A DNA stretch of 64,000 bases, taken from the NCBI RefSeq assembly GCF_044324875.1, contig NZ_CP172185.1; one strand, given 5' to 3'. The notes below the pieces were generated by a model. It saw only the letters and a program-made list of their open reading frames with translations. It was not told where the DNA came from and did not search any database. The stretch is from Escherichia coli (GTDB lineage: Bacteria; Pseudomonadota; Gammaproteobacteria; Enterobacterales; Enterobacteriaceae). The position numbers were made by a program, and so were the translations under genes. Positions 1 to 59,660 of the stretch are shown here, in pieces (position 1 is the stretch's first letter; the number at the start of each line of letters is the position of its first letter).

Positions 1-1221
1 AGTAACCCGAGCGTTATGTTGTTAAGCGCCGCCGTGCTCGGTTTACTCGGCCTGGTGCCTGGAATGCCGAACCTGGTATTTTTGCTGTTCACTGCCGGAT
101 TGCTTGGGCTGGCCTGGTGGATCCGCGGACGCGAACAAAAAGCGCCTGCCGAACCAAAACCGGTAAAAATGGCAGAGAATAATGCCGTTGTCGAAGCGAC
201 GTGGAACGATGTACAACTGGAAGATTCTCTGGGAATGGAAGTGGGTTATCGCCTGATCCCGATGGTCGATTTCCAGCAGGATGGTGAGTTGCTGGGCCGT
301 ATACGCAGTATTCGCAAGAAATTTGCCCAGGAGATGGGGTTTCTGCCGCCAGTGGTGCACATTCGCGACAATATGGATCTGCAACCTGCCCGCTATCGCA
401 TTTTGATGAAAGGCGTGGAGATAGGCAGTGGTGATGCTTATCCGGGGCGTTGGTTGGCGATTAACCCTGGTACCGCTGCCGGGACGTTACCTGGTGAGGC
501 GACCGTCGATCCGGCATTTGGCCTGAATGCTATCTGGATTGAAAGTGCGCTTAAAGAACAGGCGCAGATTCAGGGGTACACCGTGGTTGAGGCCAGCACG
601 GTGGTGGCAACGCATCTTAACCACCTCATTAGCCAGCATGCCGCAGAGCTGTTTGGTCGTCAGGAGGCGCAACAGTTGCTGGATCGCGTCGCCCAGGAGA
701 TGCCAAAGCTGACGGAAGATCTCGTTCCTGGCGTCGTCACGCTCACCACACTGCATAAAGTGCTGCAAAATCTGCTCGATGAAAAAGTGCCGATTCGCGA
801 TATGCGCACTATTCTCGAAACGCTGGCGGAACATGCGCCCATCCAAAGCGATCCACATGAATTAACCGCCGTCGTGCGCGTGGCGTTGGGACGGGCGATT
901 ACCCAGCAGTGGTTTCCTGGCAAAGATGAAGTTCATGTTATTGGCCTCGATACACCGCTGGAACGTTTGTTGCTACAGGCGTTGCAGGGCGGGGGCGGAC
1001 TGGAGCCAGGGCTGGCGGATCGTTTACTGGCGCAAACTCAGGAAGCGCTATCCCGTCAGGAGATGTTGGGTGCGCCGCCAGTTTTATTGGTGAACCACGC
1101 GCTGCGACCATTATTGTCTCGCTTCCTGCGCCGCAGCTTGCCGCAGTTAGTGGTGCTGTCGAATCTGGAACTATCTGATAACCGACATATCCGCATGACG
1201 GCGACAATTGGCGGTAAATGA
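1..1221 (+). CDS. flhA: Flagellar export apparatus protein FlhA, C-terminal part (5' end lies outside the window)
   Basis: ORF 16..1221 is open in frame back to position 1; translation matches the FlhA C-terminal cytoplasmic domain as I remember it; followed by flhE with a 4-nt ATGA overlap. Confidence 0.9.
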   Translation, partial: SNPSVMLLSAAVLGLLGLVPGMPNLVFLLFTAGLLGLAWWIRGREQKAPAEPKPVKMAENNAVVEATWNDVQLEDSLGMEVGYRLIPMVDFQQDGELLGRIRSIRKKFAQEMGFLPPVVHIRDNMDLQPARYRILMKGVEIGSGDAYPGRWLAINPGTAAGTLPGEATVDPAFGLNAIWIESALKEQAQIQGYTVVEASTVVATHLNHLISQHAAELFGRQEAQQLLDRVAQEMPKLTEDLVPGVVTLTTLHKVLQNLLDEKVPIRDMRTILETLAEHAPIQSDPHELTAVVRVALGRAITQQWFPGKDEVHVIGLDTPLERLLLQALQGGGGLEPGLADRLLAQTQEALSRQEMLGAPPVLLVNHALRPLLSRFLRRSLPQLVVLSNLELSDNRHIRMTATIGGK

Positions 1222-1613
1222 TGAGAACCTTATTAGCAATATTATTGTTTCCGCTGCTGGTGCAAGCCGCCGGGGAGGGGATGTGGCAGGCGAGTAGTGT
1301 GGGCGTTACGCTGAATCACCGTGGTGAGTCGATGTCGTCAGCGCCTCTTTCTACTCGACAACCTGCTGCAGGATTGATGACGCTGGTGGCGTGGCGTTAT
1401 CAGCTTATCGGCCCGACACCTGCAGGACTGCGGGTTCGCTTGTGTTCACAATCTCGTTGTGTCGAATTAGAAGGGCAGAGTGGAACCACCGTGGCCTTTT
1501 CCGGTATACCGGCGATAGAACCGTTGCGATTTATCTGGGAAGTGCCTGGCGGTGGGCGGTTAATTCCGCCGCTAAAGGTACAACGGAATGAAGTGATTGT
1601 GAATTATCGTTAA
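1218..1613 (+). CDS. flhE: Flagellar protein FlhE
   Basis: 131-aa ORF with signal-peptide-like N-terminus (MMRTLLAILLFPLLVQA); position after flhA; start overlaps flhA stop. Confidence 0.9.
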   Translation: MMRTLLAILLFPLLVQAAGEGMWQASSVGVTLNHRGESMSSAPLSTRQPAAGLMTLVAWRYQLIGPTPAGLRVRLCSQSRCVELEGQSGTTVAFSGIPAIEPLRFIWEVPGGGRLIPPLKVQRNEVIVNYR

Positions 1614-1652
1614 TGATAAAAAAGCCGATGTCTGCCATGACATCGGCTTTTG
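1614..1652. terminator. Bidirectional hairpin terminator between convergent flhE and argS
   Basis: Perfect stem GCCGATGTC (1624-1632) / GACATCGGC (1639-1647), A-run upstream and T-run downstream. Confidence 0.6.
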
Positions 1653-1665
1653 CCGTATAACGCGA

Positions 1666-3399
1666 TTACATACGCTCTACTGTCTCAATACCCAGCGTAT
1701 CCAGACCCAGTTTCAGCGTCTTCGCCGTCAGTTGTGCCAGTTTCAGACGGCTGTTACGCACTTCTTCGTTTTCTGCGCTGAGGATCGGGCAGTGCTCGTA
1801 GAAGCCAGAGAACAGACCAGCCAGATCGTACAGGTAAGCACACATCACATGCGGCGTGCCTTCACGGGCAACCACGGTGAGGGTTTCTTCAAACTGCAGC
1901 AGGCGAGCTGCCAGTTGCGCTTCACGATCTTCACGGATGATAACCGGAGCTGCAGCCAGTTGCTCTTCGTCAATTTCTGCTTTACGGAACACGGACAATA
2001 CACGCGTGTATGCATACTGCATGTATGGCGCGGTATTACCCTCAAACGCCAGCATGTTGTCCCAGTCGAAGATGTAGTCCGTGGTGCGGTTTTTGGAGAG
2101 ATCCGCATATTTCACCGCACCAATACCAACTGCGTTAGCCAGTTTTTCCAGCTCGTCGGCTGGCATATCCGGGTTCTTTTCTGCCACCAGACGACGTGCA
2201 CGCTCCAGGGCTTCATCCAGCAGATCGGCCAGTTTCACTGTACCACCCGCGCGGGTTTTGAACGGTTTGCCGTCTTTGCCCAGCATCATGCCGAACATGT
2301 GGTGTTCCAGCGGTACGGATTCCGGTACATAGCCTGCTTTACGGACGATAGCCCACGCCTGCATCAGGTGTTGATGCTGACGGGAGTCGATGTAATACAG
2401 CACGCGATCGGCATGCAGTGTTTCATAACGATATTTCGCACAGGCGATATCAGTGGTGGTGTAGAGATAGCCACCATCTTTCTTCTGAATGATCACGCCC
2501 ATCGGTTCGCCTTCCTTGTTTTTGAACTCATCAAGGAATACGACGGTCGCGCCTTCACTTTCTACTGCCAGACCTTTGGCTTTCAGGTCCGCCACGATAC
2601 CCGGCAGCATTGGGTTGTAGAGACTTTCACCCATGACGTCATCGCGGGTCAACGTCACGTTCAGACGATCGTAGGTGATCTGGTTCTGCGTCATGGTGAT
2701 GTCGACCAGTTTGCGCCACATCTCGCGGAAATATTCGTCACCGCTTTGCAGTTTGACTACGTAGTTACGTGCACGCTCGGCAAACTCTTCATCTTCGTCG
2801 TAATGCTTTTTCGCATCGCGGTAGAAACCTTCAAGGTCAGCCAGCTCCATTTCACCGGCGTTTTCTTGCTGCTGCTTTTCCAACCACGCAATCAGCATAC
2901 CGAACTGAGTACCCCAGTCGCCGACGTGGTTCGCGCGAATCACTTTGTGACCGAGGAACTCCAGAGTACGCACTGCCGCGTCACCAATAATGGTAGAGCG
3001 CAGGTGACCGACGTGCATCTCTTTCGCCACGTTCGGAGCGGAGTAGTCAACCACAATGGTCTGTTTTTCTGGCGTAGCAACACCGAGACGATCGGACGCC
3101 AGCGCCTGCTGAACATGATCAGCCAGGAAGGCTGGATCAAGAAAAATGTTGATAAAGCCTGGACCGGCGATCTCAACTTTGCTGGCGATACCGTTAAGAT
3201 CCAGATGAGTCAGCACCTGCTCTGCTAATTGTCGCGGTGCCATACCCAGTTTTTTAGCAACTGCCATCATGCCGTTAGCCTGATAGTCGCCGAACTGAAC
3301 TTTTGCTGACTGACGAACCTGCGGTTCGCAATCCGCAGGCGCGCCTGCCGCAATCATGGCCTGACGGACTTTTTCTGAGAGAAGAGCCTGAATATTCAC
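1666..3399 (-). CDS. argS: Arginine--tRNA ligase
   Basis: 577-aa ORF, translation [21 protein letters not shown]... with HVGH class-I motif; length matches ArgS. Confidence 0.95.
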
Positions 3400-4185: not shown

Positions 4186-4941
<756 letters not shown>

Positions 4942-4987
4942 TTTTTACCGTTGCATCATGTCGCCCAATATGATGCTTGCTCGTACC

Positions 4988-5021
4988 AGGCCCCTGCAAT
5001 TTCAACAGGGGCCTTTTTTTA
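4988..5021 (+). terminator. Rho-independent terminator after cutC
   Basis: Stem AGGCCCCTG / CAGGGGCCT followed by a T7 run. Confidence 0.6.
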
Positions 5022-5275
5022 TCCCCGAGAAGTATAAAAAACGAACGATTTCGGTGATCAGTTGAGCGCGTGACAGTGCGCATAGCGTTGTGCTAAAAAT
5101 TTTTATACATTCATATTAATTATGTAATTTAAATTACTAAAACTGACAAATATATATTCTAAATAACAACTGGGTTATTCTTTAGCAATTAATGATTACA
5201 TTGTAATAAATCATATTCTTGGTGATGCTGCCAACTTACTGATTTAGTGTATGATGGTGTTTTTGAGGTGCTCCA

Positions 5276-5551
5276 GTGGCTTCTGTTTCTATCAGCTGTC
5301 CCTCCTGTTCAGCTACTGACGGGGTGGTGCGTAACGGCAAAAGCACCGCCGGACATCAGCGCTATCTCTGCTCTCACTGCCGTAAAACATGGCAACTGCA
5401 GTTCACTTACACCGCTTCTCAACCCGGTACGCACCAGAAAATCATTGATATGGCCATGAATGGCGTTGGATGCCGGGCAACTGCCCGCATTATGGGCGTT
5501 GGCCTCAACACGATTTTACGTCACTTAAAAAACTCAGGCCGCAGTCGGTAA
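5276..5551 (+). CDS. insA: IS1 InsA
   Basis: 91-aa [46 protein letters not shown]... identical in character to IS1 InsA (zinc-finger N-terminus). Confidence 0.9.
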
Positions 5552-5973
5552 CCTCGCGCATACAGCCGGGCAGTGACGTCATCGTCTGCGCGGAAATGGA
5601 CGAACAGTGGGGCTATGTCGGGGCTAAATCGCGCCAGCGCTGGCTGTTTTACGCGTATGACAGGCTCCGGAAGACGGTTGTTGCGCACGTATTCGGTGAA
5701 CGCACTATGGCGACGCTGGGGCGTCTTATGAGCCTGCTGTCACCCTTTGACGTGGTGATATGGATGACGGATGGCTGGCCACTGTATGAATCCCGCCTGA
5801 AGGGAAAGCTGCACGTAATCAGCAAGCGATATACGCAGCGAATTGAGCGGCATAACCTGAATCTGAGGCAGCACCTGGCACGGCTGGGACGGAAGTCGCT
5901 GTCGTTCTCAAAATCGGTGGAGCTGCATGACAAAGTCATCGGGCATTATCTGAACATAAAACACTATCAATAA
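5470..5973 (+). CDS. insB: IS1 InsB reading frame (expressed as InsAB' transposase by -1 frameshift)
   Basis: 167-aa ORF in the -1 frame overlapping the insA 3' end; matches IS1 InsB as I remember it. Confidence 0.85.
5525..5533 (+). other. IS1 programmed -1 ribosomal frameshift motif TTAAAAAAC
   Basis: A6C slippery motif sits in the insA/insB overlap, where the IS1 frameshift is known to occur. Confidence 0.7.
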
Positions 5974-6103
5974 GTTGGAGTCATTACCCATATTCTTTAT
6001 CGATTATTTCAGGCAGTGTTGTGCCGAATTATGCAAGCGGTCAATTCGTTGTATATTTAATTATACAATGATTTCGGTGTTCTGGAATTAATTAGAGGAA
6101 TCT

Positions 6104-7204
6104 ATGCGAGGGAAAAAACGCATTGGGTTAATGTTTTTGCTGATAGCGGTTGTGGTTGGTGGCGGCGGGTTATTGCTGGCGCAAAAAGCCTTACATAAAA
6201 CGTCGGATACCGCATTTTGCCTTTCCTGCCACTCGATGAGTAAACCTTTTGAGGAATATCAGGGAACTGTCCACTTTTCGAACCAGAAAGGGATACGTGC
6301 GGAATGTGCCGATTGCCATATTCCAAAGTCAGGGATGAATTATTTATTTGCTAAATTAAAAGCTTCTAAAGATATTTATCATGAATTTGTTAGCGGCAAA
6401 ATAGACAGTGACGATAAATTCGAAGCGCATCGTCAGGAAATGGCCGAAACAGTATGGAAAGAATTAAAAGCAACTGATTCTGCAACGTGTCGTAGTTGCC
6501 ATTCTTTTGATGCCATGGATATTGCCTCGCAAAGTGAATCTGCGCAGAAAATGCATACCAAAGCGCAAAAGGACGGCGAAACCTGTATCGATTGTCATAA
6601 AGGCATTGCCCATTTTCCACCAGAAATAAAAATGGATGACAACGCGGCGCATGAGCTGGAAAGTCAGGCCGCTACTTCAGTTACCAATGGCGCACATATT
6701 TATCCTTTCAAACCTTCCCGCATAGGCGAACTGGCCACTGTGAATCCTGGTACCGATCTCACCGTCGTTGATGCCAGTGGCAAACAGCCGATCGTTCTGT
6801 TGCAGGGTTATCAAATGCAGGGCAGTGAAAGCACGCTCTACCTGGCGGCAGGTCAACGTCTGGCGCTAGCCACATTAAGTGATGAAGGTATCAAGGCGCT
6901 GACGGTAAACGGGGAATGGCAGGCTGACGAATACGGCAATCAATGGCGTCAGGCGTCTTTACAGGGTGTGCTTACCGATCCCGCATTAGCGGACCGTAAA
7001 CCGCTATGGCAATACGCTGAAAAACTTGACGATACCTATTGCGCTGGTTGCCATGCCCCTATTGCCTCCGACCATTACACCGTCAATGCTTGGCCGTCCA
7101 TTGCCAAAGGTATGGGGGCGCGAACCAGCATGAGCGAAAACGAACTGGACATTTTGACGCGGTACTTCCAGTACAACGCCAAAGATATTACCGAGAAACA
7201 GTGA
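6104..7204 (+). CDS. torY: Pentahaem c-type cytochrome TorY (NapC/NirT family)
   Basis: 366-aa ORF with N-terminal membrane anchor and multiple CxxCH haem motifs (CLSCH, CADCH, CRSCH, CIDCH, CAGCH). Confidence 0.9.
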
Positions 7205-7228: not shown

Positions 7229-9658
7229 ATGACATTAACAAGACGTGAATTTATTAAACACAGCGGTATTGCCGCTGGGGCGCTGGTGGTGACATCGGCT
7301 GCACCGCTACCCGCATGGGCAGAAGAGAAGGGTGGCAAAATCCTCACCGCGGGCCGTTGGGGAGCGATGAACGTAGAAGTGAAGGACGGCAAGATTGTTT
7401 CTTCGACAGGCGCGCTGGCGAAAACCATACCGAACTCCTTACAGTCTACGGCGGCGGATCAGGTACACACCACGGCGCGTATTCAGCATCCGATGGTGAG
7501 AAAAAGCTATCTCGATAATCCACAGCAACCGGCGAAAGGTCGTGGCGAAGATACCTATGTACAGGTGAGCTGGGAACAAGCATTAAAACTGATTCATGAG
7601 CAACATGATCGTATTCGTAAAGCTAACGGACCATCGGCCATTTTTGCCGGATCTTACGGCTGGCGCTCTTCTGGCGTGTTGCATAAAGCGCAAACCTTAC
7701 TGCAACGTTATATGAACCTGGCGGGCGGTTATTCCGGGCATAGCGGCGATTATTCAACCGGTGCGGCACAGGTGATCATGCCGCATGTGGTGGGTTCCGT
7801 GGAGGTGTATGAACAGCAGACCTCCTGGCCGCTGATTCTGGAAAACAGCCAGGTTGTGGTGCTGTGGGGGATGAACCCGCTGAATACCTTAAAAATTGCC
7901 TGGAGCAGTACCGATGAGCAAGGGCTGGAATACTTCCATCAGCTGAAAAAATCTGGCAAACCAGTGATTGCCATTGATCCTATCCGCTCCGAAACCATCG
8001 ACTTCTTTGGCGATAACGCCACATGGATCGCCCCAAATATGGGTACCGACGTGGCGTTGATGTTAGGGATTGCGCACACCTTGATGGTACAAGGTAAGCA
8101 CGATAAGGCCTTCCTGGAAAAATACACCACCGGCTACCCGCAGTTTGAAGAGTATCTGGCAGGCAAGAGCGATAATACGCCGAAGAGCGCGGCCTGGGCG
8201 GCGGAAATTACTGGCGTACCGGAAGCGCAGATAGTCAAACTCGCTGAACTGATGGCGGCGAATCGCACAATGCTGATGGCAGGCTGGGGAATTCAGCGCC
8301 AGCAATATGGTGAACAGAAACACTGGATGCTGGTGACGCTGGCGGCGATGTTAGGGCAGATTGGTACACCGGGCGGCGGTTTTGGTTTCTCTTATCATTA
8401 CTCCAACGGTGGTAACTCGACGCGTGTTGGCGGCGTGCTGCCGGAAATGTCTGCGGCGATTGCCGGACAGGCCAGTGAGGCCGCTGATGATGGCGGAATG
8501 ACGGCGATTCCTGTTGCCCGTATCGTCGATGCGCTGGAAAATCCTGGCGGAAAATATCAGCATAACGGTAAAGAACAAACGTATCCGAATATCAAAATGA
8601 TCTGGTGGGCGGGTGGCGGTAACTTTACCCATCACCAGGATACTAATCGTCTGATCAAAGCCTGGCAGAAACCGGAGATGATCGTCGTTTCTGAATGCTA
8701 CTGGACCGCAGCTGCTAAACATGCAGATATCGTATTACCGATCACCACATCGTTTGAGCGCAATGACTTGACGATGACCGGTGATTACAGCAACCAGCAT
8801 ATTGTACCGATGAAGCAGGCTGTCGCTGCGCAATTTGAAGCGCGTAACGATTTTGACGTGTTTGCCGATCTTGCTGAATTACTCAAACCTGGCGGAAAAG
8901 AGATCTATACCGAAGGTAGAGATGAAATGGCGTGGCTGAAATTTTTCTATGATGCCGCTCAGAAAGGTGCCCGTGCGCAACGCGTGACTATGCCGATGTT
9001 TAATGCCTTCTGGCAGCAAAATAAACTGATCGAAATGCGCCGCAGCGAGAAGAACGAACAGTACGTTCGTTATGGTGATTTCCGCGCCGATCCGGTGAAA
9101 AATGCGCTGGGTACGCCAAGCGGCAAAATTGAGATTTACTCCAAAACGCTGGAAAAATTTGGCTATAAGGATTGCCCGGCACACCCAACCTGGCTTGCGC
9201 CTGATGAGTGGAAAGGTTCCGCCGACGAGAAGCAGTTGCAGCTTCTGACCGCACATCCGGCACACCGTTTACACAGTCAGCTTAACTATGCGGAACTGCG
9301 TAAAAAATATGCGGTTGCCGATCGTGAACCGATCACTATTCACACCGAAGATGCTGCTCGCTTTGGTATTGCGAATGGCGATCTGGTGCGTGTCTGGAAC
9401 AAACGTGGTCAGATTCTGACAGGCGCGGTGGTGACTGACGGGATCAAAAAAGGCGTGGTATGCGTGCATGAAGGTGCATGGCCAGATCTGGAAAATGGCT
9501 TGTGTAAAAACGGCAGTGCGAACGTGTTAACGGCGGATATCCCCAGCTCTCAGCTGGCAAATGCCTGTGCCGGTAACTCTGCGCTGGTGTATATCGAAAA
9601 ATATACGGGCAATGCACCGAAGTTAACGGCGTTTGATCAGCCAGCTGTTCAGGCATAA
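7229..9658 (+). CDS. torZ: Trimethylamine-N-oxide reductase 2, molybdoenzyme TorZ (BisZ)
   Basis: ORF 7211..9658; ATG at 7229 preceded by GGGAGGAAG; twin-arginine signal (TRREFIK); about 809 aa as expected for TorZ. Confidence 0.9.
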
Positions 9659-9767
9659 GACGTGAAAAGCGCCCGGAAATGGGCGCTGAGGTTATGCAAA
9701 CGTAAAACTGCCTGATGCGCTATGCTTATAAGGCCTACATAGTCCCTGCAATATATTGAATTAGGAA

Positions 9768-9808
9768 GGTTTTGTAGGCCGGATAAGGCGTTCACGCCGC
9801 ATCCGGCA
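9768..9808. repeat. REP (repetitive extragenic palindrome) element
   Basis: GTAGGCCGGATAAGGCGTTCACGCCGCATCCGGCA matches the E. coli REP consensus; a second REP-like copy lies at about 9711-9740. Confidence 0.6.
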
Positions 9809-9822
9809 GTAATACCAGACCT

Positions 9823-11970
<2,148 letters not shown>

Positions 11971-42706: not shown

Positions 42707-42792
42707 ACATTTAAGCTGATGACCACCGCGCTTTTTATTGACCATTTTGCACGCAAACTGGAAAACCTGGCGTCGTCATCTATTCTTAAAGG

Positions 42793-42896
42793 GCAAGGCA
42801 ACTAAGCCTGCATTAATGCCAACTTTTAGCGCACGGCTCTCTCCCAAGAGCCATTTCCCTGGACCGAATACAGGAATCGTGTTCGGTCTCTTTTTA
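42793..42896 (+). ncRNA. sdsR: sRNA SdsR (RyeB), RpoS-dependent Hfq-binding sRNA
   Basis: GCAAGGCAACTAAGCCTGCATTAATGCCAACTTTTAGCGCACGGC... ending in terminator hairpin ACCGAATACAGGAATCGTGTTCGGTCTCTTTTT; matches my memory of SdsR and its yebY-pphA location; ends approximate. Confidence 0.6.
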
Positions 42897-43029
42897 TCTG
42901 TTAAAAGCCAGAAGCATTCCCTTCGCTGACTTTATAGTCAACCATAACACACACTCTACTGTCTGAGTCCAGCGTTTTTTAACATTCTTGTTAAGATTAT
43001 GTGATCTTTAGCGCGGGAGGAAAATATTG

Positions 43030-54354: not shown

Positions 54355-55070
54355 CACAGAAAACCCCCAGCTAGGCTGGGGGTTCCGGAAAGCTTTCAGC
54401 TTTGAGCCAGTTATTAAAACCCCTTTTGATTTGTTAAAACACCTTGCGGTCTGGCAACTGCAAGTGTCAAACAAGTGTCAAACAAGAAATCAAAAGGGGG
54501 TCCCAATGGGGAACGAAAAGAGCTTAGCGCACACCCGATGGAACTGTAAATATCACATAGTATTTGCGCCAAAATACCGAAGACAGGTGTTCTACAGAGA
54601 GAAGCGTAGAGCAATAGGCTGTATTTTGAGAAAGCTGTGTGAGTGGAAAAGTGTACGGATTCTGGAAGCTGAATGCTGTGCAGATCATATCCATATGCTT
54701 GTGGAGATCCCGCCCAAAATGAGCGTATCAGGCTTTATGGGATATCTGAAAGGGAAAAGCAGTCTGATGCTTTACGAGCAGTTTGGTGATTTGAAATTCA
54801 AATACAGGAACAGGGAGTTCTGGTGCAGAGGGTATTACGTCGATACGGTGGGTAAGAACACGGCGAAGATACAGGATTACATAAAGCACCAGCTTGAAGA
54901 GGATAAAATGGGAGAGCAGTTATCGATTCCCTATCCGGGCAGCCCGTTTACGGGCCGTAAGTAACGAAGTTGGATGCAAATGTCAGATCGTGTGCGCCTG
55001 TTAGGGCGCGGCTGGTAAGAGAGCCTTATAGGCGCATTTGAAAAACCTCCGGCTATGCCGGAGGATATTT
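54355..55070 (+). mobile_element. IS200 insertion sequence (about 710 bp); ends approximate
   Basis: Left-end perfect hairpin CCCCCAGC-TAG-GCTGGGGG (54364-54382), tnpA ORF matching IS200 TnpA, right-end hairpin CCTCCGGC-TAT-GCCGGAGG (55047-55065); size matches IS200. Confidence 0.8.
54506..54964 (+). CDS. tnpA: IS200 transposase TnpA (Y1 HuH)
   Basis: 152 aa from ATG at 54506: MGNEKSLAHTRWNCKYHIVFAPKYRRQVFY... with HIHMLVEIPP HuH motif; ORF track extends upstream through the leader (54350). Confidence 0.9.
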   Translation: MGNEKSLAHTRWNCKYHIVFAPKYRRQVFYREKRRAIGCILRKLCEWKSVRILEAECCADHIHMLVEIPPKMSVSGFMGYLKGKSSLMLYEQFGDLKFKYRNREFWCRGYYVDTVGKNTAKIQDYIKHQLEEDKMGEQLSIPYPGSPFTGRK

Positions 55071-58460: not shown

Positions 58461-59129
58461 TCCTTCCTCAATCTTGAGTAACCCCGTCGTTGAAGGGTTA
58501 CTCAATTCATCCTGATTATACGCACTGTCATGGTGCAACTGCTTCAAATTAAAACTCTGGTCTGACTTCAAATAATTATCATATTATTTATTTGCGTAAC
58601 GGGATATCAGAAAAAGATATTTAGCCCATTAATTTATTAGGATGTTTACATCGGATTTGTGATTAAGCGTGGTATTATTTATTAGCGAAACGTTTCTCTC
58701 TTGATTTTTTTGCGCATTTATCAATTTTTCTTATTTTAAATTTACAATACCTTTGGCGATTGACTTCTCTTTGGGGTGATCTATAGCCGTTAACTGACTG
58801 TTTTATGAGAAAAAGTGATATAACTTTTTATTCATTGCATAGCAGAAAATGTGATATTGCACGCACTATGTAATAACTTCTCCCACTGGCCTGGAACAAC
58901 TGAACTTATTGAACTATGTTAGAAAATACGTCAGTTTAAGTATCTGCCTGAACTGGCAAGGTTAAGCACAATGATATATCGGCGCGTATTCCGTTGCATA
59001 AGTGTGCAAAAAAAGTGGAAGACGTATCGAGATTTGTGCGTCTGATCGAGACATGTTTAAAAATGGCTTGCCATAATTAACGTTGTATGTGATAACAGAT
59101 TTCGGGTTAAACGAGGTACAGTTCTGTTT

Positions 59130-59273
59130 ATGTGTGGCATTTTCAGTAAAGAAGTCCTGAGTAAACACGTTGACGTTGAATACCGCTTCTCTGCCGAGCC
59201 TTATATTGGTGCCTCATGCAGTAATGTGTCAGTTTTATCTATGTTATGCCTGCGGGCGAAGAAAACAATCTAA
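59130..59273 (+). CDS. yobF: Small protein YobF
   Basis: Not in the ORF track; 47-aa [50 protein letters not shown] read from the sequence, immediately upstream of cspC. Confidence 0.8.
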
Positions 59274-59285
59274 GGAATTTTTCAA

Positions 59286-59495
59286 ATGGCAAAGATTAAA
59301 GGTCAGGTTAAGTGGTTCAACGAGTCTAAAGGTTTTGGCTTCATTACTCCGGCTGATGGCAGCAAAGACGTGTTCGTACACTTCTCTGCTATCCAGGGTA
59401 ATGGCTTCAAAACTCTGGCTGAAGGTCAGAACGTTGAGTTCGAAATTCAGGACGGTCAGAAAGGTCCGGCAGCTGTTAACGTAACAGCTATCTGA
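59286..59495 (+). CDS. cspC: Cold-shock-domain protein CspC
   Basis: 69-aa ORF with RNP motifs KGFGFI and VFVHF. Confidence 0.95.
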
Positions 59496-59541
59496 TCGAA
59501 TCCACTGATCTGAAGTGTGAATACGCTTCAATCTCGCTATA

Positions 59542-59568
59542 AAGCCTCGTCGAATGCGAGGCTTTTTA
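59542..59568 (+). terminator. Rho-independent terminator after cspC
   Basis: AAGCCTCG-TCGAATG-CGAGGCTT followed by a T-run. Confidence 0.55.
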
Positions 59569-59660
59569 CTTTGCTTTATCTTCGCTCCAGTCGTTCGGAT
59601 ATTTGCCCGCCGCGTGATTCGCGTTACACTTGCGGCCTTTAGTGTCCTGCCGGAGTTGTC

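Follow-up and report, generated by a model that had tools for sequence, protein, structure and literature searches.

The cutC-torY spacer of the Escherichia coli DNA analysed here (a stretch of 64 kb, hereafter the window) is interrupted by a copy of the insertion sequence IS1 placed directly upstream of the torYZ operon. The question that this locus raises is whether the copy is an ordinary product of IS1 transposition or an event that altered the expression of torYZ. We consider it very probable that it is a routine, recent and strain-specific IS1 insertion at a favoured target, with a neutral or mildly polar effect on torYZ.

The IS1 copy and its genetic context

As judged from its sequence, the element is an intact IS1A-type copy (Table 1). 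An earlier sequence-only reading of the window had described a complete 768-bp IS1 with intact insA and insB and the A6C motif, and this description is confirmed by the sequence, the reading frames, the Pfam domains and the comparison with the IS1A copy of K-12. Of the 23 positions of the left terminal inverted repeat (IRL), 18 agree with the reverse-complemented right end of IS1, and the insB frame extends to 5973. All three Pfam domains of IS1 (Zn_ribbon_InsA, HTH_Tnp_IS1 and DDE_Tnp_IS1; PF03811, PF12759 and PF03400) were found far above their cut-offs in InsAB', where DDE_Tnp_IS1 reaches 260.7 bits; InsA carries Zn_ribbon_InsA and HTH_Tnp_IS1. The hexamers of the weak promoter overlapping IRL are identical to those listed for the insAB-1 promoter by Shimada et al. 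(PMC3946193). At the nucleotide level, the copy is about 99.7% identical to IS1 copies of many E. coli genomes.

The same reading had placed the element at an AT-rich site, inside a perfect 9-bp direct repeat, with its genes oriented toward torYZ and 115 bp upstream of torY. Each of these points held: the two copies of the repeat agree to the base, the block 5100-5199 to the left of the insertion point (5220/5221) has 18% G+C over 100 bp, IS1 and torY share the same strand, and IS1 ends at 5988, the torY ATG being at 6104. Apart from the two copies that adjoin the ends of IS1, the 64-kb window contains one further CATATTCTT, and the left end of IS1 was found only once in the window with up to three mismatches allowed. 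As there is a single IS1 left end in 64 kb and the empty alleles described below align colinearly with both flanks, a composite IS1 transposon (Tn9-like) was ruled out and no rearrangement is involved.

Table 1. Coordinates of the IS1 copy and of the neighbouring features (positions in the window)
Feature	Position	Strand	Details
MicL sRNA	4713-5020	+	3' part of cutC and just downstream; Rfam RF02654, 362 bits, full length
Predicted torYZ sigma-70 promoter, GTGACA-18-TAAAAA	5070-5099	+	Best match in K-12 (PMC3946193 Table 2)
Left target-site duplication copy, 9 bp, CATATTCTT	5212-5220		Adjoins IS1 left end
IS1, IS1A type, 768 bp	5221-5988	+	Starts GGTGATGCTGCCAACTTACTGAT, ends ATCAATAAGTTGGAGTCATTACC
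Left terminal inverted repeat (IRL)	5221-5243	+	
IS1 own weak promoter, CTGCCA-16-TATGAT	5228-5255	+	Overlaps IRL; consensus scan
insA, 91 aa	5276-5551	+	GTG start; repressor and DNA-binding protein
insAB' transposase, 232 aa	5276-5973	+	Conceptual product after -1 frameshift
A6C slippery site, -1 frameshift	5527-5533	+	Within TTAAAAAAC at 5525-5533
Right terminal inverted repeat (IRR)	5966-5988	-	
Right target-site duplication copy, 9 bp, CATATTCTT	5989-5997		Adjoins IS1 right end
torY, 366 aa, intact	6104-7204	+	Pfam Cytochrom_NNT; identical protein widespread in public assemblies
torZ, 809 aa, intact	7229-9658	+	Identical product in public assemblies

On the other side of the insertion, cutC is intact in the window. 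The sigma-E-dependent sRNA MicL, for which the K-12 annotation gives the same location, ends with a terminator hairpin (about 4986-5020), and no other feature lies between this hairpin and the AT-rich tract entered by IS1. As MicL is full length and ends 200 bp before IS1, it is untouched by the insertion.

Three further features of the window were recorded. A 133-bp segment between torZ and cmoB (9688-9820), which looks like a REP pair (BIME), is present in the window and in one other genome (L028) and absent from three genomes (L029-L031) that otherwise align across it. At the start of the window (1-1662), the K-12 genes yecV and yecT, downstream of argS, have no counterpart; the order here runs from the 3' part of flhA (FHIPEP domain, ORF 16-1221) to argS (1666-3399) and leaves too little room for yecT. 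Finally, Rfam identified elsewhere in the window the RyeA/SdsR sRNA pair, STnc490 and a cspA-type thermoregulator (yobF-cspC), at 42755-42899, 54362-54496 and 59110-59570, all of which are normal E. coli content for this region.

Empty sites and age of the insertion

The sequence-only reading regarded an IS1 at this spot as not known from K-12, proposed that alignment with the K-12 cutC-torY region would reveal a clean empty site with one CATATTCTT, and took the flanking 9-mers for a target-site duplication. The comparison upheld all three statements. The K-12 record holds no mobile element in the 387-bp spacer between cutC and torY, and the alignments of K-12 to the window stop at 5220 and restart at 5989, with an overlap in K-12 of exactly 9 bp. 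An empty site with a single CATATTCTT is also found in ST2747. A draft contig with a TorZ allele identical to that of the window (L033, GCA_044689285.1) has likewise an uninterrupted spacer with one CATATTCTT, and it differs from the window by a single mismatch in 10.4 kb. This TorZ allele is present in 259 index blocks, of which 42, with a longest torZ contig of only 2-5 kb, may be bounded by IS1. Since CATATTCTT is single-copy at these empty sites, the flanking 9-mers do not belong to any larger native repeat and the duplication is genuine. Because K-12, ST2747 and the near-isogenic L033 retain the empty site, the insertion appears to be derived and recent, and young relative to the divergence of the window's lineage.

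The window's exact IS1 junction is absent from the 5,426 complete E. coli genomes, and it was likewise not found in the one-genome-per-species collection or in the JGI metagenomes. The complete E. coli genomes nearest to the window reach only about 99.0-99.4% identity across 24-25 kb of adjoining sequence, each aligning as one colinear piece without another IS. A Shigella-like origin was also considered, but a single IS in 64 kb is not the picture expected of Shigella. As a lineage marker, the insertion is clean and useful for strain typing, with little importance beyond that.

Draft assemblies break at IS copies, and one of them is relevant to the age of the event. The first base of a 263-kb contig (L032, DAJLVL010000001.1 of GCA_025523695.1) corresponds to window base 5989, the first one after IS1. 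This contig is identical to the window over 1.6 kb and then shows 39 differences, the first at 7628 in torZ, up to the end of the 4.2-kb locus at 10162. Given where draft assemblies break, a repeat probably adjoins this start, with IS1 the likeliest candidate; it would occupy the identical base in a background that is different or recombinant. From this start and the differing torZ it follows that the insertion may not be confined to a single strain and may have a greater age and spread, or that CATATTCTT may have been hit repeatedly. A draft contig ending at the left junction was sought through the window's CutC protein, a very common allele (25,155 blocks), and the matches listed contained empty sites only.

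The cutC-torY spacer as a recurrent IS1 target

The segment 4200-7200 of the window (3 kb, from cutC to the end of torY, with IS1 as observed) was used as a query against the 5,426 complete E. coli genomes. In this 3-kb stretch, IS1 is present in the + orientation in 19 genomes and in the - orientation in 51, the latter being counted with a synthetic query bearing the reversed IS1. An apparent orientation bias toward torY, considered as a possible sign of selection for read-out transcription, arose because the search joins pieces on one strand only and was dropped when the reversed-IS1 query matched its 51 genomes. With a 385-bp empty-spacer query, 5,486 places were found in 5,424 records, so that the spacer is split in about 62 of the 5,424 genomes; at least 80% of the spacer lies in one uninterrupted piece in 5,393 of them. 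Overall, roughly 1% of complete E. coli genomes carry IS1 in the cutC-torY spacer. As about 58,500 chromosomal IS1 places exist in 5,425 genomes of about 5 Mb, uniform placement would put some 4-5 IS1 copies in a 387-bp stretch where at least 43 are observed, a rough comparison in which both figures are inflated by shared ancestry.

We placed 25 sampled insertions on K-12 coordinates. They define, with the window, 16 distinct spacer positions (at least 15 besides the window) spanning -287 to -39 from the torY ATG, 10 in the + and 6 in the - orientation, and they involve at least four IS1 sequence variants with 92-99.9% identity to the window copy. Sampled insertions also lie within the genes, at six sites in torY and one in torZ, and torZ pseudogenes occur in several IS1-bearing genomes. 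Two genomes show IS1-adjacent deletions that remove the torY start, without duplication: in L015 (NZ_CP126343.1) and L014 (NZ_CP122517.1), an IS1 starting in the spacer abuts torY codons at +419 and +309, junctions that have the apparent signature of an IS1-mediated adjacent deletion of the torY start.

The window's 9-mer is the target of none of the 25 sampled insertions, the nearest sites being those of L007, 15 bp upstream, and of L005, 11 bp downstream. Other 9-mers are used more than once. The genomes L002 and L016, which have 46 flank differences, share one 9-bp target (-245..-237) with the same IS1 orientation, and L021 and L022, whose IS1 copies are 8 bases apart, share another (-216..-208), again with the same orientation. 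Exact site reuse therefore occurs, and the repeated 9-mers suggest either base-level hot spots or transfer by recombination.

Some insertions and the spacer itself have additional particularities. The divergent IS1 variants of L009 (NZ_CP046416.1, 92% identical to the window copy) and L018 (NZ_CM142689.1, 96%) are flanked by apparent duplications of 11 and 10 bp, respectively, in place of 8-9 bp, and L009 contains two IS1 copies of different variants, both inside torY. The spacer (window 4942-6103 without IS1) is unusually diverse, 4,832 complete-genome records being only 90-95% identical to that of the window; the K-12 spacer is about 94% identical to it, and the flanking genes 97-99%. Two records, 118UI and NZ_OZ546993.1, have a spacer 100% identical to that of the window, and over the neighbouring 24 kb the identity of complete genomes stays at or below about 99.4%.

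Proposed origin of the insertion

We propose that an IS1A-type copy entered the AT-rich cutC-torY spacer by simple insertion. The DDE transposase InsAB', made through the -1 frameshift at the A6C site, would have cut CATATTCTT with a 9-bp stagger, and the repair of this staggered cut would have duplicated the 9-mer. The choice of the site may reflect both the liking of IS1 for AT-rich DNA and the low cost of disturbing torYZ. Indeed, torYZ is expressed at a constant low level, and Shiga et al. reportedly described an AT-rich target preference of IS1 and an involvement of H-NS in its transposition. In K-12, genomic SELEX located an H-NS site and in vitro binding of RNA polymerase holoenzyme in the cutC-torY spacer (PMC3946193).

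As IS1 is found there in both orientations, inside torY and torZ and beside deletions, the locus would be a tolerated target rather than one of selected activation; the spacer pattern appears to fit an AT-rich target preference combined with tolerance of torYZ loss. The element is known, its behaviour is known and the site is one that it often enters; the insertion adds one more data point for the cutC-torY spacer as a recurrent IS1 landing site. A literature search on torY and IS1 found no relevant paper.

Expected effect on torYZ

The sigma-70 promoter predicted for torYZ, the only one proposed for the operon in the sources consulted, occurs in the window at a distance of 121 bp from the insertion point, on its upstream side, and IS1 now lies between it and torY. 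Because IS1 separates torY from this sole predicted promoter, torYZ expression is most likely unaffected or mildly reduced by polarity. IS1 is classically polar; if the promoter prediction is right, the element sits in the torYZ leader and should for this reason lower an already low expression. Read-through from the predicted promoter into insAB' might also raise the activity of this IS1 copy somewhat. If the expression of torYZ were changed, a slight shift in TMAO and S-/N-oxide reductase capacity could be expected, and nothing here indicates such a change.

The sequence-only reading had suggested that IS1 could change torYZ expression by displacing the promoter or by read-out transcription; the scans of the junction and the distribution of IS1 in other strains do not favour activation. 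A hybrid promoter at the right junction of IS1 was considered. The consensus scan gave no match there, such scans being weak evidence either way, and a relaxed scan of the same junction reached at best 7 of 12 matches. The candidate TTGGAG (5975-5980)-17-TATCGA (5998-6003) was rejected, as its second hexamer is without the invariant final T and neither scan supports it. Downstream of IS1, a perfect 7-6-7 palindrome (TTGTATA-TTTAAT-TATACAA, 6049-6068) is located 36-55 bp before the torY ATG; it is conserved in K-12 and may be a regulator binding site.

Alternative explanations

The insertion might instead be adaptive and activate torYZ, either by breaking H-NS silencing or through a read-out or hybrid promoter at the right end of IS1. 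The H-NS site of the K-12 spacer (PMC3946193) and an IS1 directed toward torY, with its end 115 bp away, would suit this view; the ends of IS1 can form fusion promoters, according to Prentki et al. (1986) as listed in PMC9330008, and PMC9678765 describes an IS insertion that switches on the H-NS-silenced bgl operon. However, the scans offer no promoter at the junction, the own promoter of IS1 is extremely weak and repressed by InsA (PMC12428005), and what happened in other strains points the other way: their spacer copies face both directions, IS1 interrupts torY and torZ themselves, two adjacent deletions extend into torY and several IS1-carrying genomes have a torZ pseudogene. We thus regard activation in this strain as very unlikely. 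A broader form of the idea makes the spacer a selected "IS1 switch", in which the insertions and the reuse of 9-mers rewire the H-NS silencing of torYZ, an operon responsive in its expression to oxidative and copper stress. It would make torYZ a third natural example beside bgl and flhDC, and we regard it as very unlikely too.

Two other readings concern the history of the site rather than its function. IS1 could be ancestral at this position, the empty sites of the relatives resulting from precise excision, and the contig L032, which starts exactly at 5989 in a different torZ background, could then reflect an insertion that predates the split. Yet the spacer is largely unbroken in 5,393 of 5,424 complete genomes, the exact junction is in no complete genome, the near-isogenic L033 has one clean copy of the 9-mer at its empty allele, and precise excision of IS1 is, as well established, rare. 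Moreover, since other 9-mers of the spacer have been hit again in different backgrounds (L002/L016) or by different IS1 variants (L021/L022), independent reuse of the window's site is plausible, and an ancestral IS1 seems to us extremely improbable. That the assembler misplaced IS1 while resolving a repeat is conceivable in that IS1 is a multi-copy repeat and a frequent cause of misjoins, but a misjoin would not produce the perfect 9-bp repeat around IS1, whose sequence the empty sites hold only once, and an independent draft assembly (L032) breaks at the identical base; we give practically no credit to such an artefact. The reading that we retain is the routine recent insertion at a favoured target.

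Comparison with known systems

The IS1A copy of K-12 (NC_000913.3 19796-20563) is also 768 bp long and shares 765 of 768 bases with the window IS1. The three substitutions, at window positions 5482, 5664 and 5781, leave InsA without differences and change InsAB' at one residue (S130R); the terminal inverted repeats, the A6C site and the layout of the 232-aa InsAB' are common to both copies, which differ in chromosomal location. The description of IS1 given in PMC12428005 (768 bp, weak promoter over the left repeat, A6C frameshift, 232-aa InsAB' and a duplication of 8 or 9 bp) agrees with the window IS1 on all these features, its duplication falling in the 8- or 9-bp class. According to the same source, the activity of K-12 IS1 copies is raised by their flanking context. 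Other spacer insertions (NZ_CP088131.1, NZ_AP042519.1, NZ_CP062853.1 and NZ_AP023230.2) belong to the same family, lie in the same 387-bp spacer and have duplications of 8 to 10 bp.

The closest functional parallel is the activation of bglGFB and flhDC by IS1 or IS5, where an IS likewise lies in an AT-rich, H-NS-bound region upstream of a poorly expressed operon. For bgl, activation has been shown experimentally. Insertions at torYZ do not cluster upstream while sparing the coding sequence, and the consensus scans, weak evidence either way, gave no promoter that points outward from the torY-facing end of IS1 or is formed across it. With both orientations, hits in coding sequence and deletions, the pattern at torYZ does not resemble selection for activation.
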